64,000 nucleotides of DNA from Alphaproteobacteria bacterium. GTDB taxonomy: Bacteria > Pseudomonadota > Alphaproteobacteria > Rickettsiales > SXRF01. Below, piece by piece: positions 33,442-50,129 of this stretch. Location: NCBI GenBank assembly GCA_033763775.1, contig JANRJW010000004.1, positions 8,755-72,754 of the forward strand, in the 5' to 3' direction. The translations under genes were made by a program, and so were the position numbers. Under the pieces are notes generated by a model. That model made no database searches and was not told the origin of the DNA. It worked only from the letters and a program-made list of their open reading frames with translations. How positions within the stretch are numbered: the stretch's first letter is position 1; each line of letters opens with the position of its first letter.

Positions 33442-36159
33442 ATGACCCTCTCTCTTGCGCTGAATAATGCCTTAAGTGGCCTTAACGTCAACCAGCAATC
33501 GCTATCGGTGTTGTCGCAGAACATTGCCAATGCCAATACGCAGGGCTACACGCGCAAGGTGATCAATCAGGCGGCGCTCTATCTTGATGGCCGCGGCGCC
33601 GGAGTCAGCATTGAATCAGTTTCGCGTAAGGTGGATGACTATCTGCTGCGCTCCATTCGTCTGCAGGGGAGTGTGGTGGGGCGCGGTGAGGTATATTCGG
33701 ACTATGCGGATCGCACCCAGTTGCTGCTAGGCAGGCCTGGTAGCCAGAACAGTCTGCCGAGTTTTGTGGGTAATTTTTTTAACTCCATTCAAACGCTGGC
33801 ACAAACACCGGAAAACACCACACTACGCGTTGGTGCGGTCAATAGCGCTACGGCGATGACGCGTGAAATCCGTACCTTGTCGCAATCACTGCAGGATATG
33901 CGGCTGGAGGCGGAAAATGACATTGTGCAGTCGATTAACGTTATCAATGCTACGTTGCGTGATCTCAAGGCGCTCAATGCCACGATTGTTAATGATTCGC
34001 AGCTTGGCAAAAATGTCGGCGAATTGCTCGACCGCCGCGACCGAGCGCTTGCTACACTTTCTGAATATCTCGATATCGGCACCTATCAACAGGCGAATGG
34101 GCAGATCAATATCTTCACCAGCAGCGGTGCCAGCCTGCTGGATGATAATGTGTATCAAATCAGCTATCTACCGCAATCCTCAACCACGGCCTTCATTAAC
34201 GATTCGGTCAAGGCGCCGATTAATATTTTTCGTGTGAATGATAGCGGCCAGCTGACTGGTAACCCTGTGCAGCTGGTTTCTGGCGGCAGAAGCGCGCAGG
34301 TAACCAGTGGACTGGTAGGCGGCAAGCTGCGCGGTCTTATTGATATGCGCGATAAGCAGCTGCCGAATCTGCTGGCGCAGCTGGATGTGGTGGCGTCTAA
34401 CCTGCGCGATGAGTTTAACCGCGTGCATAATAGCGGCGTAGGTTTTCCTGGCGCTAATAGCTATACCGGTGCACGTCAGGTGAATGCTGGCAGTTTCAGC
34501 CAGTGGAATGGCCAGATGCGCATGGCGCTGATGGATGGTACGGGGCGTCCGATCCCATCATCCTACCCGGATGAAACTTCTGGCGTGCGTCCGTTGCTGC
34601 TGGATTTCACCAAGCTGAATACTGGCAGTGGCGCGGGCTTTCCGACAATTCAAGGCATCATTGACGAAATCAACCAATATTACGGGCCACCGCAGAACAA
34701 GGCGGTGGTAGGCAATCTTAATAATATCCGTCTGGCTTCCAACAGCACGATACTGCCCGGAAGCCCGCCGCAGTTTAATTTTGATTTCGACCTTGAGAAT
34801 ATCTCCGGTAGCAGCTCGAATTTTTTTGTCACCGGTGTTCAGGTGCTCGATAATGCCGGCACGGATATCACCAACGTATCGCAAACCATTCCGCAGGTGG
34901 ATTTAACTGGCACCGGCACCTATACCACGACCGCCGGCAGCAGCACCGTCACCGTGCGTGCTGCAGCAAATCACGGCTTTACCAACGGCCAGACGATCTA
35001 TCTCTCAACACCGCCGGGCAGTGTTGGCGGTATTCCTGGGGCGCAGCTGGGGGGATTTTTCACCATCAGTAATGTGACCTCCGATACGTTCGAGATCACC
35101 GCAGGCACGCTCGCTACGTCCAGTGGCCCTGTCGATGTCGTCGGACAGAACGCGAAGCCACCTTACAAGGAAGTTGCGGCAGGTGAATATGGCCGCACAA
35201 CGGATCGCGGCACCATTACCGCCAATCTTGCTGGTAATCCTAACGCGCTGTTTTACACCGTGCGTGTGAATGTGGCGGTGAAAGATGCGGCGGGCAACAT
35301 GACCACCTCGCAGATCAGCTATCAGGTGGATAATAACCAGCCGAACCTGCGCAACCGACGCTACTCCACCAATGGTGTCAGCGGTGGTGGACAGCTCGTG
35401 GCACCAACAAACTTTCGGCCGCTTGCGCGCGCCATGCTGGTGGATGAAAACGGTGTTGAGTTGCCGAAAGTCAACGGTCAGTACACAACGCAGCAAAATG
35501 GTTTTCTCCGCCTCGTGGCAGATAACCCAGACGTTTCAATCGGCATTGATAGTTTAAACAGTGCCGAAAATGGCAGCCCGAACAGCAGCCCGCCGGTCGC
35601 AGGCACGGGTAGAGGGTTTTCTTATTTCTTTGAGCTGAATAACTTCTTCCGTCATTTTGACACGAATGGCGACAGCGTTACCAATGCCGCACTTAATCTG
35701 GATATTGAGGAGCGCATCGCACGCAATCCCAACTTGATTTCGCTTGGTCAGCTACGTCAGAGCCCGCGCCCGGCGGATCCGAATCAGGCGCCGCTTTACA
35801 CCTATGAGCGCAATATCGGCGATAATAGCATCATTCAGCAGCTGGCAGGGATTTCCAGCAAGATTATCCGCTTTCAGGCGGCGGGCGGGCTGGGTGAATC
35901 GTCCACCACCTTTGGCAGCTATAGCGGTGCGATTATCGGATCAGCAGCGACAACCGCCTCATCCGCGGAGGCGGATTTAAAAAATGCCAAGGCACTGATG
36001 TCTGGCTTCAGCGATCGGTCTGATTCGATCAGTGGGGTGAATCTCGATGAGGAACTCGCCAATACAGTGATTTATCAGAATGCCTACACCGCCTCCACCC
36101 GGGTGATTACGGTGGTGAGCGAATTATTCGATGCGCTTTTGAATACGTTTGGAAGATAG
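33442..36159 (+). CDS. flgK: flagellar hook-associated protein 1 FlgK (long form, 905 aa)
   Basis: N-terminus LNNALSGLNVNQQSLSVLSQNIANANTQGYTR and C-terminus GVNLDEELANTVIYQNAYTASTRVITVVSELFDALLN. Confidence 0.95.
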   Translation: MTLSLALNNALSGLNVNQQSLSVLSQNIANANTQGYTRKVINQAALYLDGRGAGVSIESVSRKVDDYLLRSIRLQGSVVGRGEVYSDYADRTQLLLGRPGSQNSLPSFVGNFFNSIQTLAQTPENTTLRVGAVNSATAMTREIRTLSQSLQDMRLEAENDIVQSINVINATLRDLKALNATIVNDSQLGKNVGELLDRRDRALATLSEYLDIGTYQQANGQINIFTSSGASLLDDNVYQISYLPQSSTTAFINDSVKAPINIFRVNDSGQLTGNPVQLVSGGRSAQVTSGLVGGKLRGLIDMRDKQLPNLLAQLDVVASNLRDEFNRVHNSGVGFPGANSYTGARQVNAGSFSQWNGQMRMALMDGTGRPIPSSYPDETSGVRPLLLDFTKLNTGSGAGFPTIQGIIDEINQYYGPPQNKAVVGNLNNIRLASNSTILPGSPPQFNFDFDLENISGSSSNFFVTGVQVLDNAGTDITNVSQTIPQVDLTGTGTYTTTAGSSTVTVRAAANHGFTNGQTIYLSTPPGSVGGIPGAQLGGFFTISNVTSDTFEITAGTLATSSGPVDVVGQNAKPPYKEVAAGEYGRTTDRGTITANLAGNPNALFYTVRVNVAVKDAAGNMTTSQISYQVDNNQPNLRNRRYSTNGVSGGGQLVAPTNFRPLARAMLVDENGVELPKVNGQYTTQQNGFLRLVADNPDVSIGIDSLNSAENGSPNSSPPVAGTGRGFSYFFELNNFFRHFDTNGDSVTNAALNLDIEERIARNPNLISLGQLRQSPRPADPNQAPLYTYERNIGDNSIIQQLAGISSKIIRFQAAGGLGESSTTFGSYSGAIIGSAATTASSAEADLKNAKALMSGFSDRSDSISGVNLDEELANTVIYQNAYTASTRVITVVSELFDALLNTFGR

Positions 36160-36170: not shown

Positions 36171-37082
36171 ATGAGTATTGGCCGCGTTAGTACTTTTGGG
36201 CTTCAGCAGACGACGCTTCGCGATGCGTCGCGTACGCAGGAGCAGCTTTCTCAGCTTCAGATACAGCTCTCGAGCGGTCTTAAAGCACAGACATTTGAGG
36301 GCATTGCCAACCAGACGGAGCAGTTTCTACAGCTCGATACGCGTATTTCCCGTACCAGACTTTTTACGGAGAATAATCGTGTGGCGATTACGCGCATGAG
36401 CACGACCGATAACGTGCTGAGCCAGTCGATTGAAACCGTGACCAGCCTCAAAAGCCTGATCATGCAGCGTCGCAACGGTGCGATAGCGGGCAATATGGCG
36501 TTTCCTGAACAGCTGGAGGGCATCTGGAAACGACTCTCGGCAGAACTTAATACCACGCTTGAAGGCCGCTATCTTTTCAGTGGCACGCGCACGGATGTCG
36601 CCCCGATTAAAAGCTCTCCTTTTCCAACATTGCGTGTCGATGGCGTACCGGATGATGGCTATTATAATGGCAGCAGCGATGATATGACCATCCGTGCGGA
36701 TGATAATATCGATATCACCTACAACGTGCGTGCCAACGAACCGGCATATCAAAAAGTTTTTGCAGCGCTTGCCATGGCAAAGAAAGGCCATGAAACCGAC
36801 AATCAGCAGGATCTGATTAAAGCCTTCGAGCTTGCCGATCAAGGGCTGAAAGAGGTGATATCCGTGCGTGCACGTGTCAGCTCTAACAAACTATCATTGG
36901 AACAGATTGTCGAGCGTCAGGACTCGCTGTCGCTTTACTGGAAAGGTGTGAAAGAAGAGATTTCTAACACCGATCTGGTGACGGTTTCCACCCAGGTGGC
37001 TGTCAATCAAGGAGTGCTGCAAGCGTCATTTCAGGCATTTGCACGAATTAATTCCTTGAGGCTCGTCGACTTTTTACGCTAA
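36171..37082 (+). CDS. flgL: flagellar hook-associated protein 3 FlgL
   Basis: 303 aa. Flagellin-like N-terminus (RVSTFGLQQTTLRDASRTQEQLSQLQIQLSSG) and C-terminus (QASFQAFARINSLRLVDFL). Confidence 0.9.
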   Translation: MSIGRVSTFGLQQTTLRDASRTQEQLSQLQIQLSSGLKAQTFEGIANQTEQFLQLDTRISRTRLFTENNRVAITRMSTTDNVLSQSIETVTSLKSLIMQRRNGAIAGNMAFPEQLEGIWKRLSAELNTTLEGRYLFSGTRTDVAPIKSSPFPTLRVDGVPDDGYYNGSSDDMTIRADDNIDITYNVRANEPAYQKVFAALAMAKKGHETDNQQDLIKAFELADQGLKEVISVRARVSSNKLSLEQIVERQDSLSLYWKGVKEEISNTDLVTVSTQVAVNQGVLQASFQAFARINSLRLVDFLR

Positions 37083-37099: not shown

Positions 37100-37606
37100 A
37101 TGTTTTCATCAGCAGGGTATTACGGCATGCCAACACAACTTCCCATTTCCAGCGGTCAGGATGTCGCCGGCGCGCCTGCAGGCGTCATCAAATCGCGCTT
37201 TGGCGAGGTGGCGGTGGACCCAGCCAAAATTCTTTCATTTCCTCGTGGTCTGCTTGGCATGCCGGAGCGTTTTCAGTTTATTCTCACCAGCTTCCCCAGT
37301 GATAAAATGGCGCAGTTCAAACTGCTGCAATCAACCGAAGACGAGGCGCTCTCTTTCATCACTCTGCCGCTGGATCTGGATAACCCGATTATTGCGCGTG
37401 GTGATATTCTGCTTGCCTGCCGTGATCTTGGCATTGCCGAGCAGGATCTTGCGATGCTACTCATTGTTTCAGTGCATCGCACGCCGGATCAGGTGAAGCT
37501 TTCGGTGAATGCCCGCGCACCGCTGATGGTCGATGCGCAGCGCCGCCTCGGGGTGCAGCATGTATTTTCGAGTGATGACTACAAAGTCCAGCACATGCTT
37601 GGGTAG
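37100..37606 (+). CDS. fliW: flagellar assembly factor FliW
   Basis: 168 aa. SRFGEVAVDPAKILSFPRGLLGMPERFQFIL...FKLLQSTEDEALSFITL matches FliW/DUF180. GAGGAG Shine-Dalgarno. Confidence 0.88.
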   Translation: MFSSAGYYGMPTQLPISSGQDVAGAPAGVIKSRFGEVAVDPAKILSFPRGLLGMPERFQFILTSFPSDKMAQFKLLQSTEDEALSFITLPLDLDNPIIARGDILLACRDLGIAEQDLAMLLIVSVHRTPDQVKLSVNARAPLMVDAQRRLGVQHVFSSDDYKVQHMLG

Positions 37607-37610
37607 AGGC

Positions 37611-39233
37611 ATGTCACTTGGCAACAGCCTGATTGATTCTTATCAGAAAGCTGATGCACTCCTGTGCAGGGGCGAACTGCAGCAGGCGGCTGATATCTGT
37701 AAACAGATGCTGGAGAGCAATCCAAACTTTGCTTATGGGTATCACTTGATGGCCTCGCTGTTCAAGGTCACGGGTAATTTTGAAAAAGCACTGAATTTTT
37801 CGGATCTTGCGATCAAGCTTGATCCTAATGTGCCCAGCTTTTATCTGCAGCGTGGCACGTTGCTCATGGCGCTGCACTGTTATGAAGCTGCTGAGGATGT
37901 GTTTCGTAAAGCCTACCAGATGAAGCCGGGTTTGATCCAGGCGCTCCTAATGGCGGCGGATGCTAGTGTTCATCAAGGACGCCACGATGATGCGGCGCGT
38001 ACCTTTGCACTGGCGCGTAGCCGCGCCACGGATCATGAGCAGGCGGATATTGATCAGCAGGAAGGCTTATGCCAGCTATCGCTCGGGCAACTGGCACGAG
38101 CCGAGGCACTGTTTGAAAGGGTGATAGCGCAGCGGCCGAATCAAGCCGGAGGTTATCTCCATAAAGGCCATATCCTGCTGCATCAGCAGCGCGATCAGGA
38201 GGCGGAGGTCTGCTATGCGCGGGCACTCAATTGTGATCCTCACCTGCAGGAAGCGCTGCATGGCATGGCTGTGGTGAATGAGCGCCAAGGTCAGATTGAT
38301 ACGGCGGTGGCATTTGCTATTCAGGCGGTGAGTGCGCATGGCACCGTGCTTGATAGCCTGCTACTGCTCGGGCAGCTATTGTTGCGGAAACAGAATTTCT
38401 CCGCTGCAGAGCAGATGTTCCGTCAGGCATTGGCCGTGGTGCCAGATCAGGTGGTGGCGCTGTGCGGGCTGTCACAATCATTGATAGCGCAGCGCAGGCA
38501 GCATGAGCTGGCAAGTTTTCTTGCGGAGCAGGCCACGATCATGCCGCAGCACGAAGGGCTGATTTTTCTTGCGGCGGCGGCAAGTGGGCAGAATGCTTTG
38601 CGAGCGCCGCAAAGCTTCATCAGCAGCTATTACGATGAGCTGGCGCGGCGTTATAATTATTTTCTCAGGCCGCTCGATATGTATCAGCCGCACCAGTGTG
38701 CTGAAATGCTGCGCGCGCTACCACAACTACAGGGGCGAACGAGCCTCAGCCTTGTCGATTTAGGGTGTGGCGATGGACGCCTATCCGCAGCGCTGGGGGA
38801 TGGTTTCTCTTTGCGCCTCGGGGTTGATCTCTCCAAAGCGATGCTGGATATTGCCCAGATACACCGCCGTTATGATGAGACCTACACGTTGGATATGGTC
38901 GAATTCGCCATGGGTAGTGACCGTATGTTTGATATCGTCGCTGCGATTGATGTGCTGCCGCATCTGGGAGATCTTGTACCCTTTTTCCGTGCGGCACGAA
39001 ACCTTCTCGCTTCTGCCAGCGTCATGGTGTTTACGATTGAAAAATCCAATTTAGAAGCTGCCTACACGCTGCGTCCGAACGGGCGTTATATGCATAGCCA
39101 TGGCTTCATCCACGCATTGCTGCAGGATGAGGGCTATAACTGTGTGTTTTCTGAAGAGGTGTTGCTTCGTCTTGAGGCGGGCGTGCCGGTGATGGGCATG
39201 GTCTATGTTGTTCAGAAAATGACGGTGCACTGA
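37611..39233 (+). CDS. TPR-repeat protein with C-terminal class I SAM-dependent methyltransferase domain
   Basis: ATG at 37611. The N-terminal ~330 aa are TPR-like repeats. The C-terminus has motif I LVDLGCGDGRLS and DIVAAIDVLPHLGDL. Its stop overlaps the next ATG (tgATGa, 39231-39235). Confidence 0.75.
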   Translation: MSLGNSLIDSYQKADALLCRGELQQAADICKQMLESNPNFAYGYHLMASLFKVTGNFEKALNFSDLAIKLDPNVPSFYLQRGTLLMALHCYEAAEDVFRKAYQMKPGLIQALLMAADASVHQGRHDDAARTFALARSRATDHEQADIDQQEGLCQLSLGQLARAEALFERVIAQRPNQAGGYLHKGHILLHQQRDQEAEVCYARALNCDPHLQEALHGMAVVNERQGQIDTAVAFAIQAVSAHGTVLDSLLLLGQLLLRKQNFSAAEQMFRQALAVVPDQVVALCGLSQSLIAQRRQHELASFLAEQATIMPQHEGLIFLAAAASGQNALRAPQSFISSYYDELARRYNYFLRPLDMYQPHQCAEMLRALPQLQGRTSLSLVDLGCGDGRLSAALGDGFSLRLGVDLSKAMLDIAQIHRRYDETYTLDMVEFAMGSDRMFDIVAAIDVLPHLGDLVPFFRAARNLLASASVMVFTIEKSNLEAAYTLRPNGRYMHSHGFIHALLQDEGYNCVFSEEVLLRLEAGVPVMGMVYVVQKMTVH

Positions 39234-40399
39234 TGAGCGCGCTGCTACAGCATCCGCTGCTTGGCGAGTTTCAGTGCCTTGGGGATCGCTGCGCGGATAC
39301 GTGCTGCAAAAGCTGGTCGATGCAGCTCGATGCCGCTACCTATGAAACCTACCAGCGAGAAGCACCCGAGCTTCTGGATGCAGTGGAGGCGGCAGAAGAA
39401 TCACCATGGATCATGCGTAAGGATAAACAGACCGGTTATTGTGTGAAATTCGATAATGGCCTGTGCGGCATTCACAAAAATTATGGCGATAAGTTTCTCG
39501 GGGATGCCTGCCATTTTTATCCGCGCGCCACACGCAAGCTTGGCGATCAGACGATCATGACCGCCACGCTGTCCTGTCCCGAAGTGGCAAGGCTCGCGCT
39601 ATATGCGGATGCGCCCTTTGGCTGGCGCGAAACAACCATCGACCGCTTGCCCTTCAGCCTCAAGGACTATCTGCCCGAGGCGCTCAGCGGCGAGCAGGCG
39701 CGCCATGTCCATGAAGCTTTTCTTCATGCCTGCGAAGATGCCGCTCCAGCCGAACAGATTCTTGCACGCATAGCCAGTGTGGCACGTTCCATGATGCTTC
39801 TGGATCAGGCAAGCTGGCCACAAGCGGTGGGTTTTTATTTGCGTATGGCCGACGGTCGTCTGCCTGCTGCTAAGGCGGATGTGAATGACCCGTTTAACCT
39901 GCTCCACGCGCTGATGGGGATTATTGTCGCCACTCGCAAGCCGATGAGCGAGCGCTTGCGCCAGACAGTTTCACAGATGCAGGCGATGCTGGCTGTCACT
40001 CTCGACTGGCAGACCACACAGATACACACCACCGATGCCAGCGCGCCAGCTTATCAGCAGGCGCGGCAGAACTGGGATGAGCACGCCGCATATTATCAGC
40101 CGCTTCTGAAACGCTACCTGCAGATGCAACTCTCTGTTTCTCTTTTTCCATTTTCGGGGCTTGGATCAAACGCGCCGGAGCGTATCACGCTGATCGGTGT
40201 CAGGCTCGCCACCATCAGGCTGGCACTGATGGCTGCGCATCAATGCCATGGCGATGTGCCGAATCAGGAAGAGGTGGTCAGGGTGGTGCAAAGTTTATCG
40301 CGCTGTCTGGATCATCTGGGCGATGCAGCCTTTTCACTCGCCATTTATCATGAAACGGGCTGGGATCAGGAAGCGCGCCTTCGTGGGCTGCTGATATGA
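39233..40399 (+). CDS. fliB: FliB-like flagellin lysine-N-methylase family protein
   Basis: 388 aa. The N-terminus FQCLGDRCADTCCKSWSMQLD...YCVKFDNGLCGIHKNYGDKFLGDACHFYPR parallels Salmonella FliB (FSCSGSACRDHCCKGW...C.......LC...C..FPR). Confidence 0.7.
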   Translation: MSALLQHPLLGEFQCLGDRCADTCCKSWSMQLDAATYETYQREAPELLDAVEAAEESPWIMRKDKQTGYCVKFDNGLCGIHKNYGDKFLGDACHFYPRATRKLGDQTIMTATLSCPEVARLALYADAPFGWRETTIDRLPFSLKDYLPEALSGEQARHVHEAFLHACEDAAPAEQILARIASVARSMMLLDQASWPQAVGFYLRMADGRLPAAKADVNDPFNLLHALMGIIVATRKPMSERLRQTVSQMQAMLAVTLDWQTTQIHTTDASAPAYQQARQNWDEHAAYYQPLLKRYLQMQLSVSLFPFSGLGSNAPERITLIGVRLATIRLALMAAHQCHGDVPNQEEVVRVVQSLSRCLDHLGDAAFSLAIYHETGWDQEARLRGLLI

Positions 40400-40490: not shown

Positions 40491-40592
40491 GGAATTCACA
40501 GTAAAACTGTAGGGTAGTGTGGTCATAGAAGACCGCATTGGTACGGAGAGCATGTAGCACTCCATGTTTAACATCCATGTAGGAGACGACCC

Positions 40593-43500
40593 ATGGTCAA
40601 CTCAATTAACACCAATATTGCGGCTTATTTTGCGCAAGCAAACATCAGTCGCGCATCCGATATGTCCTCATCGTCAGTCGCGCGTCTTTCGAGCGGTAAC
40701 CGCATCGTAAGAGCGTCCGATGACGTAGCAGGTCTTTCTATCGGTACCAGCCTTCGCACCAGCGTTTCGGCACTGCGTACCGCACTCGTGAACGCCTCGC
40801 AGGGCTCCAGCCTGCTTCAGGTTGCTGACGGTGCGCTCTCGCAGGTGACGGAGATTCTGCAACGTCAACGCGCCATTGCCTTCCAGGCGGGTTCGGGTAC
40901 GCTGCAAAACTCTGACCGCGTGTTCCTCAACCAGGAATTCCAGGCACTGACCTCTGAGGTCGATCGTCTGACGGGTTCCACCAACTTCAACGGTGTGCGC
41001 CTGCTCAACGGTTCGCTCACCAGTGCTGCTGGTATTAATTCGAATAGCAACGCTTCCACGGGCGGCGAACTTCGCCTCAACTTCAACGATCTCATCACGG
41101 CTGGTGAGTCGGTGATCGTTGGCGGCGTGACCATGGTTGGTCTGAGCTCTGCCTCGACCGATCCGCGTGGTTTCGTTGTCACTGCAGATATCAACACCAC
41201 CCTGCAGAACCTTGCTAACGCGCTCAATAACCTTGCTTCGAACGCTACTTACGGTACGTCGGTTGGCCAGGCTATTTACAGCGTGGATGGTAACTCGCTG
41301 GTGGTTAAATCCCGCACCGGCGGTACGCTCAGCAACAACTTCACCTCTTCTTCTGTGGCTACCGGCCAGTCGCTGAACGGCCTTGGATCTGCTGCTGTAG
41401 GCACGGCTGCTGGTGATGATATCACCATTAACCTTGCGAATTCCGGCTTTGTCGTCGGCCAGCGCGTAGTGTTTAATGGTATGTCGGCTGTCGGCGGTAT
41501 CACGCTCTCTGGCGAATATGTTGTGACCGCAGTAAGCGGCAGCAACTTTACCATTGATCAGGCTGGTACGCCTAGCAACACCACCAACGTGAACCAAGGT
41601 GCTAACGCGATCGTCTATGCTGCGACCGCTGCTTATACCAGCTCGGTTTCCTTTGGTGAGGCTACCTTCAACACTGGTGGTTCCAGTTTCAGCCTGTTTT
41701 CAACCACGGGTGCCACCTCGGCAACCACGGTGGTTTCTGCAAACGCGGCAGCAGCTGGCACACCTTTTGCCAACGGTGATTCCATTACCGCAACCGTGAA
41801 CGGCGTGACCAAGACCCTCTACACCTTTGGTGCAGCGAGTGACGGTGGTGCGCGTACGTTGAAAGACGTGGTGGATGGCATCAATGCTAACTTTGCCAAT
41901 ACTGGTTTCAAAGCAGCGCTGACCTATAGCGGTGGCGGCTATAACATTCGCCTCAGCTATGCCGGCAACGCCAGCAACGTGATCATTGATTACGGCAGCA
42001 ACTATGTTGGCACTAACTATGCTGTGGCTGGCCAGGGTATTGGCACTACGGCTGCGAATGGTGCAACAACAGCTACTACGGCTACCCGTGCGCTGTTTGG
42101 CACCAGCTACATTGATGTGTTGAACACTGCGAGCGGTGTAGCGAACTTAACCACCTCTGTGGTTGGTACCGATGCTACGGCTCCGTTTGCTGTTGGCAAC
42201 ACCATCACGCTGAACGTCAACGGCAAGAGCGAAATCCTGCATACGATTGCTGCAGGCAACACTCTGACGCAGATTGTCAGCAGCATCAACTCACGCACTG
42301 CCGACACTGGTGTAGTTGCGATGATCAGCGGCACTTCAGGCGCCTACAACATTCGCCTGTTTGTTTCTGATTCAGCTGCTTCCCCAACTGTTGCAGGCAG
42401 GACGAACGATGTGATCACCGTCAGTTCAGCCACAGCGCTGGGCAGCGGTACGGTGAACGCAGCTACATTTGGCACGATCGATTCCAGCACGGTGCTGGTG
42501 CGTAACAGCAACTTCGGTCTTGCGGGTGGTCTGGATAACGGCATCAGCGCAGGCAGTGTTTCGGTCACCGGTTCGGTGGGCGACAGCATCCTGACCGCGT
42601 TGGCACAGACTCGTGCGAACAGCTCGCTCATCTTCACCTCAAACGCTTCGGAGAACGACACCATTACCCTTGGTGGTAAGGTGTTCACGTTCACCAGCAA
42701 CACGACCCGCGGTGTGGATGAAATCCTGATCGGCTCGACAATTTCCGAAACGATCGACAACCTGATCAATACGCTGCGCAGTTATCTGGCGAACGGTAAC
42801 GCCACGACAGCAGAGGCCTACCAGCTCAACCAGATGGAATTTGCCCGCAGCGGCAATACCTTCACGGTGACGGGCAAGGGTCTTGGTAACATTACCACCA
42901 TCAATGGTGCGAATGCGACCATCGCACGTTCCAACACCACTGGTACGTCGCTCACCTCGGGCACGTTCAACAACGCCTCCAGCACCTATGGCGTGGATGT
43001 GACCGGCATCACCAACGCGGCTTTCCGCGGTGTGCTGCAGGGCTTCCAAGCCACTTACACAGGTACGGCGGATACGGTGAACCTATCGATCAAAATCGGC
43101 GACTTCACCTACACTGCTAACAACCTGGATGCCACGGTGTCTGCGAATACCCGGGTTCGCCTGTATTCCAATACGGTGGATGGTAAAAATGGTGGGTATT
43201 TCGATATCCAGCTTGCTTCGGGCGCTGTTGCCAATGGCTTCAGTGATCAAGCCGGTGCGGATGCGATTGCCAGCCGTCTGAACGTGGCGTTCACCACACT
43301 GACCTTCCGTCAGGAACGCCAGATCTCTAGCTACAATGGCACACAAGGTATCTCTTCCAACGGCACCATCATTGGTTCGCTGGTGGGTACCAGAGTGTCG
43401 GCTCAGGTGAATGATTTCAGCAGCCTCCGCTTGTCTGATATCAAAGTCACCGCACCGACCGGTAGTGCTACTGATGCGAAGATCAGCCTGCTCATCAATG

Positions 43501-44093
43501 GTGTAAGCTACAGCACCACGGCAGGTCTTGGTTCGAAGCTCGGCGCTAATCAGACCTTCCGTCTGGTCAGCGAGGTGGATGCGAATCAGTATCTCGAGTT
43601 CACGACTGGTAACACCTCCATCGATATCAGCTCGGCAGCAAACGCTGCTGCGGTTGAAACCGCTCTGAAGAGCGCCTTTGGTGCGACCTCCGGCTCTGCC
43701 GCGCTGTCGTTCCAGATCGGCTCCAGCGCGACCGATACGCTTGCTGTATCGATTGGTGATGCGACCACAGACTCGCTGTTTAACGGCGAAGTGCTCGATG
43801 TGTTGAGCCAGGCCAGCGCAACCCGCGCTGCCGCTGTACTCGATGCAGCACTACAGAAGGTCACCAGCATCCGTGCGGATGTGGGTGCGCTGCAATCCAG
43901 GTTTAACTTTGCTTCAGCGAACATTCAGATCGCTGTGCAGAACCAGGACGCCGCGCAGTCTCAGCTGCTCGATACTGACATTGCCTCTGAGTCGACATCG
44001 TATGCTACCTCGCAGGTAAAACTGCAGGCTGGTATCTCGGTACTCGCTCAGGCTAACCAGCAGCTCCAGGCTCTTCTGAAGCTGATCGGTTAA
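40593..44093 (+). CDS. fliC: flagellin, giant form (1166 aa)
   Basis: N-terminus MVNSINTNIAAYFAQANISRA...LSSGNRIVRASDDVAGLSIG and C-terminus IRADVGALQSRFNFASANIQIAVQNQDAAQSQLLDTDIASESTSYATSQVKLQAGISVLAQANQ are canonical D0/D1 segments. About 880 aa of Thr/Ser/Gly/Ala/Asn-rich middle. Confidence 0.95.
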   Translation: MVNSINTNIAAYFAQANISRASDMSSSSVARLSSGNRIVRASDDVAGLSIGTSLRTSVSALRTALVNASQGSSLLQVADGALSQVTEILQRQRAIAFQAGSGTLQNSDRVFLNQEFQALTSEVDRLTGSTNFNGVRLLNGSLTSAAGINSNSNASTGGELRLNFNDLITAGESVIVGGVTMVGLSSASTDPRGFVVTADINTTLQNLANALNNLASNATYGTSVGQAIYSVDGNSLVVKSRTGGTLSNNFTSSSVATGQSLNGLGSAAVGTAAGDDITINLANSGFVVGQRVVFNGMSAVGGITLSGEYVVTAVSGSNFTIDQAGTPSNTTNVNQGANAIVYAATAAYTSSVSFGEATFNTGGSSFSLFSTTGATSATTVVSANAAAAGTPFANGDSITATVNGVTKTLYTFGAASDGGARTLKDVVDGINANFANTGFKAALTYSGGGYNIRLSYAGNASNVIIDYGSNYVGTNYAVAGQGIGTTAANGATTATTATRALFGTSYIDVLNTASGVANLTTSVVGTDATAPFAVGNTITLNVNGKSEILHTIAAGNTLTQIVSSINSRTADTGVVAMISGTSGAYNIRLFVSDSAASPTVAGRTNDVITVSSATALGSGTVNAATFGTIDSSTVLVRNSNFGLAGGLDNGISAGSVSVTGSVGDSILTALAQTRANSSLIFTSNASENDTITLGGKVFTFTSNTTRGVDEILIGSTISETIDNLINTLRSYLANGNATTAEAYQLNQMEFARSGNTFTVTGKGLGNITTINGANATIARSNTTGTSLTSGTFNNASSTYGVDVTGITNAAFRGVLQGFQATYTGTADTVNLSIKIGDFTYTANNLDATVSANTRVRLYSNTVDGKNGGYFDIQLASGAVANGFSDQAGADAIASRLNVAFTTLTFRQERQISSYNGTQGISSNGTIIGSLVGTRVSAQVNDFSSLRLSDIKVTAPTGSATDAKISLLINGVSYSTTAGLGSKLGANQTFRLVSEVDANQYLEFTTGNTSIDISSAANAAAVETALKSAFGATSGSAALSFQIGSSATDTLAVSIGDATTDSLFNGEVLDVLSQASATRAAAVLDAALQKVTSIRADVGALQSRFNFASANIQIAVQNQDAAQSQLLDTDIASESTSYATSQVKLQAGISVLAQANQQLQALLKLIG

Positions 44094-44161
44094 CCCGGGA
44101 GACTCTACGGGAATGGCCGGGGTGGTAACCCCATCCCGGCCAAACCTGTAAGGAGGACAAT

Positions 44162-44527
44162 ATGGATGTATTAGGAACAATAAAACCAGCAGCTACTACG
44201 CCCATGCCGGTGAAAGCATCGGCGGTACTTCCTGCTGCGTCATCTGCGCAAAGTATTCAATTGCCGCAACGCAATCTGGAGACCGTGCAGTATGATGCTA
44301 AAGTGGCGGATGCAAAGCGCCAGGAAGCGGTTGCCAATGCTGCGCGCAACGCGCCGCAGCCTCTGGGCAGTCAGGTCTTTACCATGTTCAAAGACTCTAC
44401 CGGCCAGATCGTGACGCGCTTTCGCGACACCAATAGCGGCAAAGTGACCTACATACCAGAGCCGCAGCTACTACGCATGGCAGGCAATACCAGCGGTTCG
44501 GAATCGCTGCTGAATATCAAGGTTTAG
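44162..44527 (+). CDS. flaG: flagellar protein FlaG
   Basis: 121 aa. The C-terminal TMFKDSTGQIVTRFRDTNSGKVTYIPEPQLLRMAG fits the FlaG family. AAGGAGG Shine-Dalgarno. Confidence 0.8.
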   Translation: MDVLGTIKPAATTPMPVKASAVLPAASSAQSIQLPQRNLETVQYDAKVADAKRQEAVANAARNAPQPLGSQVFTMFKDSTGQIVTRFRDTNSGKVTYIPEPQLLRMAGNTSGSESLLNIKV

Positions 44528-44650: not shown

Positions 44651-46777
44651 ATGGTAACCCAGATTCAATTAGGTAACTTCTACAGCTCTGGCGGAAGAAC
44701 CGTCGTGGGCGGTGCGGGCGGTTCCGGACTGGATACCCAGTCGATTATCAAATCACTCACCGATGCCAAGCGTCTGCCTGCCACTCAAATTGAAGATCGT
44801 ATCAAAACGAATAGTGAGCGTACCAAAGCGCTGACGGAATATCGCACGCTGATGGCAAAATTCAAAGATGCGCTCAATTTCCTACGCAACCCGCCGGGGG
44901 TTGGCAATGCCGCGGATAATGTTTTTCGCTATGTGAACGCCAGCGTGACTTCCAATAGCGCCGTTGCTGGAACCAGCTACCTTACTGCCAGTGTGGCACC
45001 GGGCGCTAGCTTACAGAACTACAGCGTTACTGACATTACCTCTGTCGCGCGTGCACGCCGCCAGAGCACGGCTAATTTCAGCATCGCTAATCCTGACACA
45101 GCCGTTGTGTCTGATTCACCTGCAGGCGTTGAGTTCAAAGCTGGAACTTTTACTTTTAAGGGCAAAAGCATCACGCTGAATGCGGGCGATAGCCTGAATA
45201 CAGTCGCCACCAAATTCAATGCAGTTTCTGCTGATACGAAAGTGACCGCCAGTGTTGTCCGTGTTGGGGATAACAGCTACCAGCTGCTTTTTACCGCCAC
45301 AGCTACCGGCACTGCCGTCGATTTTAATTTTAATGATGGCGGCACCACGCTGGTTGATGCAAGCAATGTATTTAGTCTTGTAACTGTGACCAACCAGCAG
45401 ACGGCGAGCAACGCAGTTTTCAAATTCAATGGCACGGAAATTACCAGGCAGTCCAACAGCGTGACCGATCTCGTCCCCGGGCTGACGCTGAATATTCTCA
45501 CCACCACGCCGCCAGAGCCGGATCCCACTGAAATCACCATCAATATCAGTCCGGATGCGCAGGTGGTCAAGGGCGGCATCATTAATTTCATCAATGCCTA
45601 TAACGATCTGAAAGTTTTTGCCGCCAAGCAGACGCAGGTAAATCCTGATGGCACGTATGCTGATACGGCGGTGCTGAGCAACAGCTCGGTGCTACGCAGC
45701 AGTCTGAGTAGCGTTTCCTCGCAGCTTTCCACGATTGTATCGGGTCTTGGCAGCGGTTTTAGCCGCCTTGCGGATATTGGTGTGGTGTCGGCGGATCTTC
45801 CGGAGTCGGATGAAAACCCGCTGGTGCGCAATATTTTGAATGTTGATGAAGGCAAACTTACCGAGGCAATCTCCAGTAACTTTGATCAGGTGCGTCGGCT
45901 TTTTGAATTTGATTTTGTTTCAAACAACCAGAATCTGCGTGTTTTTTCACGCACCAATGCACTCACCGCGAATAATTTTACGCTGGAAGTCAACCCCTAC
46001 GCGGTGCAGCAGACTAAAATCTATGAGATTGTGGATGCGAATGCCGCCGTTGTGGCCGCCAGCCCGGATAGTAATCAGATTAAAGCCGGCGCGGTGATCA
46101 TCAATAGCGTGGCGATTGATCTGGTGGCAGGCGATTCGCTGAACCAGATTCGCGATAAGTTTAATGCGGTGAGTGCAACCACCGGCGTAACGGCCGAAGT
46201 GGTTGAGACAGCGCCGAATAAGTTCCGCCTTAAATTCACCAGCACTGTCAATGGTGTTGATACTAACCTTCTTTCGTCAAGTGTGAATCCTAATGGCGTA
46301 TTCAGCGATGCAGGCATTACCGCAACCGCCAGCTACAAAGCGACTTATGCAGGCTCAGGTGGCCCAGTGACTCTTGATTTGACAGGTTCTTTTGTGCTGG
46401 GTTCAGGCAACAGCCCCAGCGGTATTCGCCTTGAGGGGCAAAGGGGCACGGCGCTGGAAGGGCTGGTGATGGTATATGCAGGCACGCTTTCTTCCAGTAT
46501 TGCGGTCAGTGCTACGCAGGGCATTGCGGATCGCATTTATAACCTCAGCGATGAAATTCTGAAGGAAGATGTAGGTGCGCTCGAAATTGAGCTTGAAAGC
46601 ATCAAAACCTCCGATACCAAGCTGCAGGAAGATATCAAGCGCATTGATGCTCAGGTCGAGCGCTATCGTGAAGAACTGCTTGCTAAATTCAGTGCGCTCG
46701 AGCAGGCTATTACGCGTGTTAACACGCTGCTTCAGAGCCTTGATGCCAACCAGCGCGCGATGAATGGAGAAAACTAA
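44651..46777 (+). CDS. fliD: flagellar filament cap protein FliD
   Basis: 708 aa. GLDTQSIIKSLTDAKRLPATQIEDRIKT N-terminus, two flagellin-IN-like repeats (SITLNAGDSLNTVATKFNAVSADTKVTASV / IDLVAGDSLNQIRDKFNAVSATTGVTAEV), coiled-coil C-terminus. Confidence 0.93.
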   Translation: MVTQIQLGNFYSSGGRTVVGGAGGSGLDTQSIIKSLTDAKRLPATQIEDRIKTNSERTKALTEYRTLMAKFKDALNFLRNPPGVGNAADNVFRYVNASVTSNSAVAGTSYLTASVAPGASLQNYSVTDITSVARARRQSTANFSIANPDTAVVSDSPAGVEFKAGTFTFKGKSITLNAGDSLNTVATKFNAVSADTKVTASVVRVGDNSYQLLFTATATGTAVDFNFNDGGTTLVDASNVFSLVTVTNQQTASNAVFKFNGTEITRQSNSVTDLVPGLTLNILTTTPPEPDPTEITINISPDAQVVKGGIINFINAYNDLKVFAAKQTQVNPDGTYADTAVLSNSSVLRSSLSSVSSQLSTIVSGLGSGFSRLADIGVVSADLPESDENPLVRNILNVDEGKLTEAISSNFDQVRRLFEFDFVSNNQNLRVFSRTNALTANNFTLEVNPYAVQQTKIYEIVDANAAVVAASPDSNQIKAGAVIINSVAIDLVAGDSLNQIRDKFNAVSATTGVTAEVVETAPNKFRLKFTSTVNGVDTNLLSSSVNPNGVFSDAGITATASYKATYAGSGGPVTLDLTGSFVLGSGNSPSGIRLEGQRGTALEGLVMVYAGTLSSSIAVSATQGIADRIYNLSDEILKEDVGALEIELESIKTSDTKLQEDIKRIDAQVERYREELLAKFSALEQAITRVNTLLQSLDANQRAMNGEN

Positions 46778-46782: not shown

Positions 46783-47241
46783 ATGACCAGCAGGCAGAAA
46801 TATCAGGCCTACGCCTCAGCCACGCAGACGGTGGCGCGCACTAAGCAGATTGTCATGCTGTATGATGCCGCCATTCGCTATCTCCAGCAGGTCAAAGAGG
46901 CGATTGCGGAAAAACGCATTGAAGATCGCTATCATCTGCTCATTAAAGCAAGCGAGATTATCTTTGGTTTGCAGTCCTGCCTTGATTTTGAAAATGGCCG
47001 CGATATTGCGAAGATTCTCTACCAGTTCTATTCTTCCATCGACAGCCGCATTTTTGCTATCCATCGTTCGGCCAGCCTTGAGGGCTGCGATGAAATCATT
47101 GCCGAATTAAAGCAGATGCGCGATGTCTGGCACGATATCGATCAGGGCACATTGCCTGCCAGTGAACCGGCGGCTGCGCCGGCCACCACCACAGCGCCTA
47201 TTGCTCCTGCGGCAGAAGGTTCTGTCAGTTTCTCTGCCTGA
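46783..47241 (+). CDS. fliS: flagellin-specific chaperone FliS
   Basis: 152 aa. QIVMLYDAAIRYL...ASEIIFGLQSCLDFENG..IAKILYQFYSSI pattern. Pro/Ala-rich C-terminal tail. Confidence 0.9.
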   Translation: MTSRQKYQAYASATQTVARTKQIVMLYDAAIRYLQQVKEAIAEKRIEDRYHLLIKASEIIFGLQSCLDFENGRDIAKILYQFYSSIDSRIFAIHRSASLEGCDEIIAELKQMRDVWHDIDQGTLPASEPAAAPATTTAPIAPAAEGSVSFSA

Positions 47242-47351: not shown

Positions 47352-49193
47352 ATGGCAAATGTTTCCGTTTCCCTTCTTAAGCTGGCGCAGCCGGCATCTT
47401 CTGCAACTGGCGATGCTCGCGTGGAATCTGCCCAGGATTTCAGCCTGCTGCTGGCAAGCGGGCAGGGCGCGGGCGATCAGGGTCTCAAAAAACGCAGGCC
47501 AGATGAGCTGCAGGGTAATTTGTTCGCGCAGCCAATGCTTCTCCCGGATGTGATGCCCCAGCGGGTAAGCCCGGCGCGGGGTTCGGTCGAAGCGAGCCCT
47601 GAGCCGGACATGGATAACATTCAGCCGCAGACGGCGACACCGCAAATGCCTGAACGCCGCTTAGCATCGCGCCGAGCTGCAAGCGAATCGCGCGAAGATG
47701 CTAGCGAGACCACCGCACCGCAAAAACCAGCAGCGCCGCGTGCGGCTGATTCAGATGCAAAACAACCTGTCTCGCAAGAGCGCGATGCTGCGGAGGTTAG
47801 CGAATTTTCTTCTGCTGAGTCGCCGGCGATATCGACCGCGACGAACCCGGCAGAGACAGAGCCGTCAAAGGAAGTTTCCAAGCTGGCGGATGAGATGCAA
47901 AAGCAGCTTGCCGCCATGCTTGCGTCGGGTAATTTTGCCGGGCTTTTATCGCTGCTGCGCGAATTTGTAGCGCAACTGCAGTCGCTTGCGCAGGGGCAGC
48001 CGGGTGCTGCTGCGGTGCAGCTGGGGGGTGGCACATTTCAGGCCGAGGCGCAGTCAGCTGGCGCAGCGCCAATGAATGGTCAGGCTTTCCTGCTGCAACT
48101 TTCCGCGCAGCTTCAGGGATTGGTGCCGCAGAATGCATCATCGCTAACGCTGCCGCCTGAAGGAAGTTTCAGCCAGTCGCAGCTGGCCATGCTGACGCGT
48201 CAGCTTCAAGCGGCAATTGCCTCGTGGCAATCATCACGACAATCGCCAGGTGCTCAGTCTAGCAATCCGACCGATACGTCATCCCTGGCACAGACGCTTC
48301 AAACCCTGCGCGCTGCGCTGGCTTCTGCGATGAATGATAGTGTCGCCAGTTTTCAGGCGGCAGAAGTCGCAACACCGGCAGCAACCACACCCATTCCCGC
48401 CGCTTCTGCTGAAACCGCGGTGCTACGTCCTCAGGATAGACCCGTAACGGCCTCGGAGCCATCAACAGCGCTTTCTTCAGTAGCTGGAGAAGCCGATAGA
48501 TCGGTTGCGCCGGTGCTATCATCACCCGCGCAGGCGCCATCTTCATCACAGACGGCTGTTCAAAATCCCTCACAGGCTGAGACGCTACTTGCTTCGCAAG
48601 CCGTGGTGGCATCCGGGCAGGCATCATTATCAGATGGTGAAGGAAGCGGCTCAGAAGGACGATCATCGCAAGCGCCGCTTCAGGCCATAGGCCAGCCCTC
48701 AACCGCACCCGCAGATGCATCGCATGGGCGTGTACATACAGCGGCATTTTCTCGCCTGTTGCAACCGCAGCCCAGCCAGCCAGTTGCTGATCAGGTCGCG
48801 GTGCAGATTAAAACGGCACTGCGTGATGGCAGCAGCAGCATTACGATTCAGCTGGATCCAGTGGAGCTGGGCAAGCTGGATATCAAGCTGCATGTGGCCT
48901 CAGATGGCCGCACGCAAGTGGTGATAACCGCGGATAATAAAGACACGCTGGCATTGCTGCAGAAAGATAGTGGCGGGCTGGAGCGTGCTCTGTCTGATGC
49001 GGGGCTGAAGGCAGATAGTGGCAGCCTGAGTTTTAATCTGCGTCAGGGTCATAGCCAGCAGGAATCTGACCACCAATATGCCAGAGAGAGCTACCTCAAA
49101 ACCATGCCGGACGAGGAGGAAGTGCCGCCGGCGAGCGTGATTGCGCGAAACTACATGGTCAGCCTCACTGAAGGCATTGACATTAAAATTTAA
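47352..49193 (+). CDS. fliK: flagellar hook-length control protein FliK
   Basis: 613 aa. Long Pro/Ala/Ser/Gln-rich ruler and C-terminal Flg_hook domain (ITIQLDPVELGKLDIKLHVASDGRTQVVITADNKDTLALLQKDSGGLERAL). Confidence 0.88.
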   Translation: MANVSVSLLKLAQPASSATGDARVESAQDFSLLLASGQGAGDQGLKKRRPDELQGNLFAQPMLLPDVMPQRVSPARGSVEASPEPDMDNIQPQTATPQMPERRLASRRAASESREDASETTAPQKPAAPRAADSDAKQPVSQERDAAEVSEFSSAESPAISTATNPAETEPSKEVSKLADEMQKQLAAMLASGNFAGLLSLLREFVAQLQSLAQGQPGAAAVQLGGGTFQAEAQSAGAAPMNGQAFLLQLSAQLQGLVPQNASSLTLPPEGSFSQSQLAMLTRQLQAAIASWQSSRQSPGAQSSNPTDTSSLAQTLQTLRAALASAMNDSVASFQAAEVATPAATTPIPAASAETAVLRPQDRPVTASEPSTALSSVAGEADRSVAPVLSSPAQAPSSSQTAVQNPSQAETLLASQAVVASGQASLSDGEGSGSEGRSSQAPLQAIGQPSTAPADASHGRVHTAAFSRLLQPQPSQPVADQVAVQIKTALRDGSSSITIQLDPVELGKLDIKLHVASDGRTQVVITADNKDTLALLQKDSGGLERALSDAGLKADSGSLSFNLRQGHSQQESDHQYARESYLKTMPDEEEVPPASVIARNYMVSLTEGIDIKI

Positions 49194-49205: not shown

Positions 49206-50129
49206 ATGATCAATACGAACGCAGTTTCAAATTCGGTAGGTGGCGGCAAATCTCGCGAATCGCTGGGCAAGATTGACGAAAACTATCAGAATTTTCTAAC
49301 CCTGCTGACAACACAGCTCAAAAATCAGGATCCATCCGATCCCACCGATACCAATCAGTTGACGCAGCAGATTGCAACCCTCTCGCAGGTGGAGCAACAG
49401 CTTAAGACCAACGAAAATCTTGAAAAGCTGGTGGGGATGTACAGTGCCACACAATATAACAGCGTGGTGTCCTATATCGGTAAAAAAATTGAAGCCGAGG
49501 GCGATGCAGGCGCACTTAAAAATGGTACGGCAAGTTTTTCCTACAATCTTTCCAGCGCAGCGAATGATGTCAAAATTATCATTCGTGACAAGGACGGCAA
49601 TCTTGTTCGAACCGATAACTTGAGCGGTATTCGTAATGGCGGTGGCCATCGCTATAACTGGGATGGCAAGGATAATCAGGGCAACGTCGCAGGTGAGGGC
49701 GAGTATACGCTCACGGTTGAGGCGCGTCTCGGCAATAGCACCATATCGGCCACGGGCAACGCAGCTGAGCTGCGCCATACCAAGCCAGAATTTGTTTACT
49801 ATCTTGCGCAGGATGCCGCGTCGCTTACCATTACCATCAAGGATAAGAATGGTGGCATTATTCGTCGCGACACCGCAGGTGGCACAAAAATTGCTGGCCG
49901 TAACAGCTATGTATGGGACGGTAAAGATAACAACGGAAATACGATGCCTGAAGGTGAATACAAAATCGAAGTAGCGGCGAAGGACAATGCGAACAAGGAT
50001 ATTGTCGCAAAGACTTTCATGACCGGTGTGGTGACATCGATCGATAGCGTGAATGGTTCTGCATTCCTTTCGATTGGTGACATCGCGATTCCGCTGGAGC
50101 GGGTGACTTCCATCCGCTTGGCAAGCTAA
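49206..50129 (+). CDS. flgD: flagellar hook assembly (cap) protein FlgD with duplicated Ig-like domain
   Basis: 307 aa. NYQNFLTLLTTQLKNQDPSDP N-terminus. Two tandem units each ending in xWDGKDNxGNxxxEGEYxxxVxA. Confidence 0.92.
   Translation: MINTNAVSNSVGGGKSRESLGKIDENYQNFLTLLTTQLKNQDPSDPTDTNQLTQQIATLSQVEQQLKTNENLEKLVGMYSATQYNSVVSYIGKKIEAEGDAGALKNGTASFSYNLSSAANDVKIIIRDKDGNLVRTDNLSGIRNGGGHRYNWDGKDNQGNVAGEGEYTLTVEARLGNSTISATGNAAELRHTKPEFVYYLAQDAASLTITIKDKNGGIIRRDTAGGTKIAGRNSYVWDGKDNNGNTMPEGEYKIEVAAKDNANKDIVAKTFMTGVVTSIDSVNGSAFLSIGDIAIPLERVTSIRLAS

Follow-up and report, generated by a model that had tools for sequence, protein, structure and literature searches.

Does the very long open reading frame (ORF) at 40593-44093 on the plus strand of a 64,000-nucleotide stretch of alphaproteobacterial DNA encode a flagellin that forms a filament, and of what is the large region between its termini built? 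The stretch, referred to below as the window, covers positions 8,755 to 72,754 of contig JANRJW010000004.1 (assembly GCA_033763775.1). The gene, stop codon included in the coordinates, specifies a protein of 1166 amino acids (aa), 117.7 kDa and pI 4.8, and was assigned from the ORF and from matches to Pfam, NCBIfam and the Protein Data Bank (PDB). A preliminary description of the window had called it a giant flagellin with textbook termini. From the analysis reported here it is likely that the gene encodes a filament-forming flagellin, probably the sole one, which builds a thick filament with a seven-domain outer layer.

The ORF starts with ATG and continues for 1166 codons with zero internal stops. 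Flagellin_N (PF00669) was matched at aa 5-141 with an E-value of 6.9e-32 (profile positions 1-137 of 139, 110.8 bits against a cut-off of 26.6), and Flagellin_C (PF00700) at aa 1082-1165 with an E-value of 1.2e-15 (profile positions 3-86 of 86), reaching the C-terminus of the 1166-aa protein. Near full-length N- and C-terminal flagellin domains on one uninterrupted ORF bear out the description as a genuine giant flagellin, and the length lies above the 1000 aa beyond which a true flagellin is counted as giant (PMC6248924). The D0/D1 helices of the filament core comprise aa 1-145 (40593-41027; Flagellin_N at aa 5-141, model helices at aa 2-33, 36-100 and 106-130, family identity 73-80%) and aa 1046-1166 (43728-44090; Flagellin_C at aa 1082-1165, helices at aa 1073-1127 and 1130-1165). 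The protein was matched by NCBIfam flagellin models and by dozens of flagellins in the PDB, in each case through these two termini only, and the best PDB sequence matches were flagellins, again through D0/D1. It scored 178 bits on a flagellin model and 62 bits on the FlgL model TIGR02550, and a separate FlgL of 303 aa is encoded nearby. The middle of the protein had been described as rich in Thr, Ser, Gly, Ala and Asn and poor in Lys and charged residues, and this was confirmed. In aa 151-1040 (890 aa) Thr (13.9%), Ala (12.9%), Gly (11.8%), Ser (11.6%) and Asn (9.1%) together make up 59%, and Lys accounts for 1.5% (13 residues), Asp plus Glu for 5.6% and Arg for 2.8%. The whole 1166-aa flagellin contains no Cys, no Trp and a single His.

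The outer 900 aa (about 90 kDa) were modelled as seven compact, mostly beta domains, in the order A-B-C-D-E-F-G. For aa 151-1040, an AlphaFold model made from 121 sequences had a predicted local distance difference test score (pLDDT) of 86.4 and a predicted template modelling score (pTM) of 0.87; the pLDDT of the full-length model was 76.7. Domain limits were set from secondary structure, confidence dips and conservation. The confident model and profile comparison together divided this region, previously described as a repeat-containing part of about 880 aa, into the following domains. Domain A (aa 146-262, 41028-41378, pLDDT about 84-96) is a beta/alpha domain and a paralog of E. Domain B (aa 263-345, 41379-41627) is a small five-strand, E1_FCCH-like beta-barrel, recognised from profile comparison with a module of the hook protein FlgE and the junction protein FlgK, from the model strands and from the typing of architectures in relatives. 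Domains C (aa 346-475, 41628-42017) and D (aa 476-600, 42018-42392) are Flagellin_IN-type repeats 1 and 2. A poorly conserved linker of low confidence follows (aa 601-624, 42393-42464), with pLDDT below 50 at aa 594-607 and 612-623 and a family identity of 17%. Domain E (aa 625-768, 42465-42896, pLDDT above 90) starts the E-F-G block common to most relatives. Domain F (aa 769-903, 42897-43301, pLDDT 91-97) is a beta-sandwich plus helix, and its paralog G (aa 904-1045, 43302-43727) adjoins the C-terminal D1. Within the family, the E-F-G block was the best conserved part (about 38-67% identity), and B and the linkers were the least conserved (17-29%).

Three pairs of paralogous domains were found when family sub-alignments were compared by hhalign: A and E (probability 98%, E 1.8e-13), C and D (99.7%, E 5.7e-26) and F and G (81%, E 1.3e-5). 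The remaining 18 domain pairs had probabilities of 30% or less and serve as an internal control against composition bias. Internal Flagellin_IN-like repeats had been reported before; the two segments quoted at that time correspond to aa 392-456 and 532-591, and they proved to be parts of domains C and D. The extended repeat, aa 349-462 against aa 492-597, is 35% identical with a Smith-Waterman score of 138, and in a window scan the repeat scored 121, with 3000 shuffles giving at most 74. Self-BLASTP with default statistics detected no internal repeat of the flagellin, so that the Smith-Waterman scan with shuffles and profile-profile comparison were needed. In the full protein, Pfam Flagellin_IN (PF07196) was matched at aa 537-585 (E 4.6e-5, 24.0 bits against a gathering score of 22.7). 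On isolated segments D passed this model with 28.7 bits (E 1.5e-6) and C remained below the cut-off of 22.7 with 16.3 bits (E 0.012).

The closest PDB match of the full-length model was the Geovibrio thiophilus flagellin 9au6 (E 4.7e-15), followed by the flagellins of E. coli H7, Azotobacter and Pseudomonas. The match to 9au6 is due to D0/D1: when the model of aa 151-1040 was searched by Foldseek, no PDB chain was found at E <= 1e-3, and no flagellin, 9au6 included, was among the top 50. A phmmer search of the same residues against the PDB gave matches at chance level only, and none was significant for any chain, the P. aeruginosa flagellins 5wk5, 5wk6 and 4nx9 among them. On account of the chance-level phmmer result and the loss of 9au6 after removal of D0/D1, a homologous relationship between the outer region and flagellin outer domains of solved structure was rejected. 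The best Foldseek matches of the outer region were weak and comprised H. pylori FliD (E 3.9e-3), outer domains of phage tail sheaths (8kee, Milano and 7-7-1) and FliD D2-D3 fragments; the FliD structures 6iwy, 5fhy, 5xlk and 5h5t were among them. The match to 8kee was domain-sized with a probability of 0.99. In a viral structure library, domain-sized matches to uncharacterised phage structural proteins were obtained, for example RcTitan A0A0K1LLJ5 with a root-mean-square deviation of 3.0 over 127 columns; these phage matches are given for the outer region as a whole. The outer layer thus appears to be made up of surface-decoration folds of a generic kind, like those of flagellar and phage proteins, and the seven-domain arrangement has no solved counterpart.

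Domain B relates the flagellin to the hook and the hook-filament junction. In hhalign it matched the FlgE/FlgK module family with a probability of 98.6% (E 5e-16), and the FlgK and FlgE alignments taken separately with 95.9% and 94.8%. The stretch concerned, aa ~268-337, had a pairwise score of 82 (z = 4.2), and shuffled sequences reached 78 at most. The single copy of the hook/junction module previously assigned to the flagellin was thereby located, by profile methods only. Neither a plain nor an iterated hidden Markov model (HMM) of the module reached the flagellin, and BLASTP of the flagellin against FlgE, FlgK and FliD gave no match, so that the relation is visible only through hhalign of family profiles. 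Pfam run on segment B alone found no match at E <= 5, PF16190 included. The FlgE copy at aa 734-796, in comparison, passes the E1_FCCH model PF16190 with 43.4 bits against a cut-off of 29.5 (E 3.6e-11). Domain B thus resembles the PF16190 barrel in being homologous by profile comparison to hook copies that pass the cut-off, and differs in falling below it; the E1_FCCH likeness implies no ubiquitin-E1 function.

FlgE (50157-53498, +), assigned by FlgE models, the module HMM and PF16190, is a hook protein of 1113 aa with four B-type modules at about aa 289-359, 376-440, 449-516 and 734-805. The hooks studied structurally are, to our knowledge, all far smaller. FlgE orthologs were compared in eight loci from metagenome-assembled genomes (MAGs), here numbered L001-L008, where FlgE is 831-1143 aa long and carries one to four barrel copies. 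The shortest hook of the eight (831 aa, one barrel copy) is found in L008, in which the flagellin is short as well. FlgK (33442-36159, +; TIGR02492 and module HMM) is a protein of 905 aa with one B-type module at aa ~495-563, whose identity to FlgE aa 290-356 is 42% (BLASTP E 5e-7); in all loci FlgK keeps a length of about 900 aa. The third protein with modules in common is the filament cap FliD (44651-46777, +), 708 aa, recognised by Pfam FliD_N, FliD_C and Flagellin_IN. Its Flagellin_IN motifs are related to domains C and D: C matched FliD aa 142-227 with an hhalign probability of 90% and D matched aa 97-214 with 93%. The external axial proteins thus measure 1113 (FlgE), 905 (FlgK), 1166 (flagellin) and 708 aa (FliD), and hook, junction, filament and cap proteins are all far larger here than their enterobacterial counterparts.

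A search of a protein collection gave 571 relatives of the flagellin at E <= 1e-20, the best 120 of which were all 888-1680 aa long. The few relatives that carry names are 'flagellin [Rickettsiales bacterium]' or 'flagellin [Alphaproteobacteria bacterium]', and the eight MAG loci, likewise from 'Rickettsiales/Alphaproteobacteria bacterium', encode orthologs of 44-96% identity. When aa 151-1040 were compared by HMMER with 1.84 billion cluster representatives, 183 relatives were found, with lengths of 124-2067 aa among those listed; the stretch most often matched was aa ~620-1040, that is E-F-G. The largest relatives measure 1680 aa among the typed full-length proteins and 2067 aa among all matches, which makes the 1166-aa protein a mid-sized and not the largest member of a family of several hundred.

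HMMs of A-G were used to type the architectures of 260 relatives, and the following counts refer to full-length ones. The minimal architecture was FG (from 489 aa, n = 23), followed by AEFG (from ~780 aa, n = 15), ACEFG (from ~890 aa, n = 49), ACDEFG (from ~1080 aa, n = 18), ABCDEFG (1160-1291 aa, n = 28), which is the type of the protein studied, and AC(C/D)nEFG (1318-1680 aa, n = 27 in total). The Flagellin_IN-type unit occurs in up to six or seven copies in relatives, and domain B only in the ABCDEFG subgroup. In L008 the syntenic flagellin (10001-11677) has only 559 aa, and in tblastn it is aligned with aa 879-1166 of the window flagellin, so that the region of domain G is still present; two F/G-like segments were seen in it by eye but were not recognised by the A-G HMMs. 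These data suggest that F and G, beside the C-terminal D1, are old inner domains, that B, C and D in the middle are recent, distal and variable, and that size grows mainly through tandem amplification of the Flagellin_IN-type unit. Domain B would have been gained in the ABCDEFG subgroup alone, the simplest source being the hook or junction gene nearby.

Comparison of the eight loci hints that hook and filament size vary together. A further-reaching idea, to be regarded as tentative and rather doubtful, is that the whole external axial structure (hook, FlgK, filament and cap) has been enlarged together by exchange of E1_FCCH-like barrels and Flagellin_IN/FliD-like modules among the four genes, giving a continuous self-encoded protein coat from the cell surface to the tip. 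If this were true, module copy number (1-4 in FlgE, 1-7 in flagellin) would be a fast-evolving dial for thickness, stiffness or surface identity, and the flagellin of the ABCDEFG subgroup would be the first with a hook-type module displayed on the filament.

The gene had been described as the only flagellin gene of the window, and a six-frame phmmer scan of the 64 kb agreed with this in finding no second one. The protein could instead be a minor or specialised flagellin, restricted to a proximal or distal segment or to certain conditions, with the bulk of the filament made from a normal-size flagellin encoded elsewhere. Several flagellins are common in bacteria, and Geovibrio has three (PMC11532411). 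The 64 kb are a fraction of a genome, and short complete flagellins with 52-56% D0/D1 identity do occur in metagenomes. However, a single flagellin slot beside FliD, FliS, FliW and FliB is held in eight of eight loci, with no second flagellin in the window, and no short complete flagellin comes near the ~75-80% D0/D1 identity seen among giant orthologs. A synthetic query consisting of D0/D1 only found no complete short flagellin above ~56-62% D0/D1 identity in a collection of 5.8 billion proteins. A search with the N-terminal 150 aa for short paralogs returned truncated fragments only, in a type of search that appears to favour targets of similar length. The reservation in the preliminary description, that a normal-size flagellin might form the filament in place of this protein, was thus answered in part: a close short relative was not met in the collection, and the reservation stands for a more divergent one. 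A minor or specialised role is accordingly unlikely.

The filament-forming flagellin could, in addition, carry a second function in its outer region, as an enzyme, as a lectin or as an adhesin, with thousands of copies on display. Known examples of extra roles are the flagellinolysin metalloprotease flagellins and the cell-surface flagellin homolog of Sphingomonas, the former being a precedent for added functions. Weak Foldseek matches to the carbohydrate-binding module (CBM) CBM66 (E 0.17) and to glycoside hydrolases point in this direction, as does the frequent binding of glycans by phage tail decoration domains with a similar fold. The CBM and hydrolase matches, however, had probabilities of 0.07 or less, no enzyme or lectin Pfam family was matched at E <= 5 in any of seven segments, and all recognisable modules are flagellar (Flagellin_IN, FliD-like and hook/junction barrel). 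Inspection by eye had previously revealed no HExxH motif, and a motif search over all 1166 aa found none either; the scarcity of His and the lack of Cys also argue against an enzyme. The match to the flagellinolysin model NF033876 reached 30 bits (cut-off 205) and was confined to the shared C-terminal region at aa 1021-1096, and the HExxH metalloprotease domain that flagellinolysins have in their variable region was absent. The enzyme hypothesis was rejected, as the HExxH search, the seven-segment Pfam scan (E <= 5) and Foldseek of the cropped model revealed no catalytic domain. The outer region was thus found, as first described, to contain repeats, with no catalytic motif or enzyme family matched. 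To judge from its sequence it may have an adhesive role, but a second function as a whole is improbable.

That the long ORF is an assembly chimera, a fusion of genes by frameshift or a decaying pseudogene is extremely improbable. Repetitive genes are sometimes mis-assembled in MAGs, but nothing else was found in favour of such an artefact. Independent assemblies from different samples yield proteins (n = 28) that are colinear, 1160-1291 aa long and alike in the order of their seven domains. The start codon is conserved, as is the Shine-Dalgarno block, and the internal repeats, being only 35% identical, are too diverged to cause assembly collapse. The ORF, which according to the preliminary description might have been split by a sequencing error, is intact and colinear in orthologs of 49-96% identity in the eight syntenic loci. 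Against the 96% identical ortholog of L002, the ratio of nonsynonymous to synonymous substitution rates (dN/dS) was 0.086 overall and 0.04-0.13 in each domain. Purifying selection thus acts over the entire ORF, which excludes an artefact or pseudogene.

The same comparison, in which window positions 41100-44100 were set against L002 11000-13500, revealed a nucleotide identity of 88-92% inside the flagellin and of mostly 97-99% in the flanking flagellar genes. dS was about 0.3-0.4 in the outer region and 0.03 in the N-terminal D0/D1, a difference of approximately ten-fold. Diversifying selection was considered as the cause of the higher divergence and was rejected, dN/dS being ~0.09 and dS 10-fold above that of D0/D1. 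High dS with low dN/dS instead indicates recombinational import of the surface-coding part of the flagellin, and recombinational replacement of this part is usual for flagellins.

In flagellins D0/D1 polymerise into a core of 11 protofilaments, and everything between them points outward. For the protein studied, the helices of aa 1-145 and 1046-1166 would form the D0/D1 coiled-coil core and, as follows from family membership, D0/D1 would drive type-III export, binding of FliS and FliW, and polymerisation under the FliD cap. Domains A-G would project outward from D1 with F and G as the ancestral inner pair, and duplication, together with recombination involving other flagellar genes, would have added E with its paralog A, the repeats C and D and the barrel B step by step. 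The resulting filament would be thicker than the 24-nm filament of Salmonella and covered by a dense, weakly acidic, Ser/Thr/Asn-rich and lysine-poor protein coat, low in charge and with many hydroxyl and amide side chains. This coat would probably lend the filament stiffness or stability and give it a variable surface. A diameter of ~29-37 nm was estimated from the observed-to-solid ratios of 1.41 (Geovibrio) and 1.78 (Salmonella) with an axial rise of ~4.7 Å per subunit; the hard lower bound, with the 1166 residues packed solid, is 20.6 nm (~21).

Several points weigh against this picture of a thick, seven-domain filament. Domain B is modelled with low to moderate confidence and the linker at aa 594-623 with low confidence, and the homology of F and G is only moderately supported (81%). 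The inner-to-outer order of the domains would follow from sequence order and conservation and not from model coordinates. The diameter depends on scaling from two solved filaments and on an assumed usual axial rise. The organism is uncultured, so that the flagellin is known here from its gene sequence, and as 64 kb of the genome were seen, a second, divergent short flagellin may be encoded elsewhere.

Giant flagellins have been on record since 2018, together with their thick filaments and their origin through duplication of domains (PMC6248924), and multi-domain outer regions with FliD-like modules since 2024 (PMC11532411); the phenomenon is thus already known, and members of the present family are labelled 'flagellin' in public MAG records. 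The statement in the preliminary description that flagellins above 1000 aa are known from few lineages understates the literature, in which such proteins are widespread in many phyla and 92 Flagellin_N (pf00669) proteins above 1000 aa were counted in UniProtKB before FlgL filtering (Thomson et al. 2018, PMC6248924). In Bermanella marisrubri and Oleibacter marinus, 120-kDa flagellins are the sole filament protein, and the filaments measure at least 30 nm as compared with 24 nm (PMC6248924). The window flagellin resembles them in its length above 1000 aa, canonical D0/D1, outer region enlarged by domain duplication, single flagellin locus and lack of an enzyme domain. They differ in belonging to Gammaproteobacteria and in having tandem Pseudomonas-type 'DE' regions with a DX insert (PMC6248924), whereas the window flagellin has seven domains of four types, one of them in common with hook and junction. 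Homology to the DE regions of the Oceanospirillales type was not found among PDB structures, Pseudomonas included, the Bermanella sequence itself lying outside the comparison.

The Geovibrio thiophilus flagellin (9au6) of 793 aa has a D2-D5 outer region in which one domain is related to FliD D2 and duplicated, and its authors propose that flagellins grow via recombination with other flagellar genes (Nat Commun 2024, PMC11532411). A multi-domain outer region with a FliD-related, duplicated domain is shared by the window protein, which exceeds it in length by 373 aa, with seven outer domains instead of four. As the match to 9au6 vanishes without D0/D1, the Geovibrio outer domains are not close structural relatives. 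Domains C and D are like FliD D2/D3 and PF07196 in matching the motif and FliD aa 97-227 of the window (90-93%), but unlike FliD the motif lies inside a flagellin and is tandemly amplified, and the structural match is weak (best Foldseek E 3.9e-3). New in detail are the seven-domain architecture of three pairs, the hook/junction barrel on a flagellin, and the modular series in a single lineage with giant hook, junction and cap. Of all parts of the flagellum, the outer domains of flagellin are understood least, and the largest solved outer region is the four-domain one of Geovibrio (793 aa), which makes a seven-domain outer layer with no solved counterpart a target for electron cryomicroscopy. 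The graded series FG, AEFG, ACEFG, ACDEFG, ABCDEFG and AC(C/D)nEFG (~490-1680 aa) in one lineage displays the stepwise building of a giant flagellin by tandem duplication and by modules from cap, hook and junction genes, and thus offers a concrete test set for relating outer mass to filament diameter, stiffness and swimming.

The gene directly upstream of the flagellin (39233-40399, +) encodes a FliB-like flagellin lysine-N-methylase (NF038110, E 3.5e-42, 145.3 bits against an equivalog cut-off of 85), and fliB adjoins the flagellin in all eight loci. In Salmonella, the flagellin FliC is lysine-methylated by FliB (PMC7181671, PMC8598068). The present gene pair resembles this system in the position of its fliB homolog, but unlike FliC the flagellin has 13 Lys in 890 outer residues, and the host, going by MAG isolate names, appears to be environmental (freshwater) and not an enteric pathogen. 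Conserved lysines were found in domains E, F and G, namely K762 (46/52), K834 (40/52), K963 (31/52) and K1026 (34/52), with K865 as a further conserved candidate. By analogy with Salmonella they are plausible methylation targets of the adjacent FliB.

Between fliW and fliB, overlapping the end of fliW, lies a gene (37533-39233, +) for a 566-aa fusion of tetratricopeptide repeats (TPR) with a class-I S-adenosylmethionine methyltransferase, recognised by Pfam TPR repeats and by Methyltransf_11/12/25 at aa 408-499. It is present only in L001-L003 of the eight loci, and no NCBIfam family was matched. Caulobacter has a TPR-glycosyltransferase, FlmG, and by analogy the fusion may be a second, TPR-targeted flagellin-modifying enzyme. 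Within this gene, at 38694-38993, a second patch divergent from L002 was observed (82.7% identity).

The flagellin is preceded by a structured 5' leader (40517-40592, +), recognised from an alignment of the eight loci and RNAalifold. It consists of hairpins at 40517-40538 and 40545-40563 and the invariant block TAACATCCATGTAGGAGA at 40569-40586, which includes the Shine-Dalgarno sequence. Both the start codon and this block are conserved in the alignment. RNAalifold found four compensated pairs, with GC-AU covariation in the hairpin at 40545-40563, and the UCC of the block is able to pair, within 40574-40584, with the GGA of the Shine-Dalgarno sequence. To judge from these features, the leader looks like a translational control element. 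No csrA was found in the window or the eight loci, although fliW is present, and a CsrA-FliW switch acting on the leader thus stays speculative. No known RNA family was detected by Rfam anywhere in the window. Scans for sigma-70 promoters and terminators around the flagellin remained at chance level, and no convincing sigma-28 promoter was seen by eye upstream of it.

The flagellin occupies the slot between fliB and flaG-fliD-fliS in a plus-strand flagellar cluster, in which the order is FlgK, FlgL, FliW, the TPR-methyltransferase (where present), FliB, flagellin, a FlaG-like ORF, FliD, FliS, FliK, FlgD and FlgE. The order from FlgI to FlgE is the same in all eight loci as far as the contigs extend. 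FliX (30838-31398, -), FlgI (31476-32612, +) and a FlgN-like ORF (32960-33424, +) are located upstream of FlgK, and FlgL (36171-37082, +) follows it. The flagellin-binding assembly factor FliW (37100-37606, +) was matched by NCBIfam FliW models below their cut-offs (E 1.5e-17). Downstream of the flagellin, a small ORF of 121 aa in the position of FlaG (44162-44527, +) gave a weak FlaG match (E 0.07) and is kept in all loci. FliD is followed by the flagellin chaperone FliS (46783-47241, +; Pfam FliS, E 2.3e-24), FliK (47352-49193, +) and FlgD (49206-50129, +). Housekeeping genes upstream in the window include ilvBHC, leuA, mreBC and PBP2. These, together with FliX and an ORF with a DUF2671 domain, suggest that the host is an alphaproteobacterium and not a reduced obligate endosymbiont. 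The DUF2671 ORF (E 3e-20) is located directly after flgE at 53617-54024 (+).

Further genes of the window outside the cluster were also noted. On the opposite strand past flgE, positions 54466-56526 (-) encode a membrane protein of 686 aa that includes an O-antigen-ligase (Wzy_C) domain; periplasmic O-oligosaccharyltransferases would normally not meet flagellin. A 735-aa protein is encoded at 15568-17775 (+), in which aa ~495-649 at the C-terminal side form a LOG/TIGR00730 Rossmann-fold domain and the N-terminal ~490 aa gave no NCBIfam match. Between leuA and mreB, at 23979-25847 (+), a 622-aa protein was found in which an HTTM (vitamin-K-carboxylase-like) membrane domain is fused to a DCC1-like thiol-disulfide oxidoreductase.

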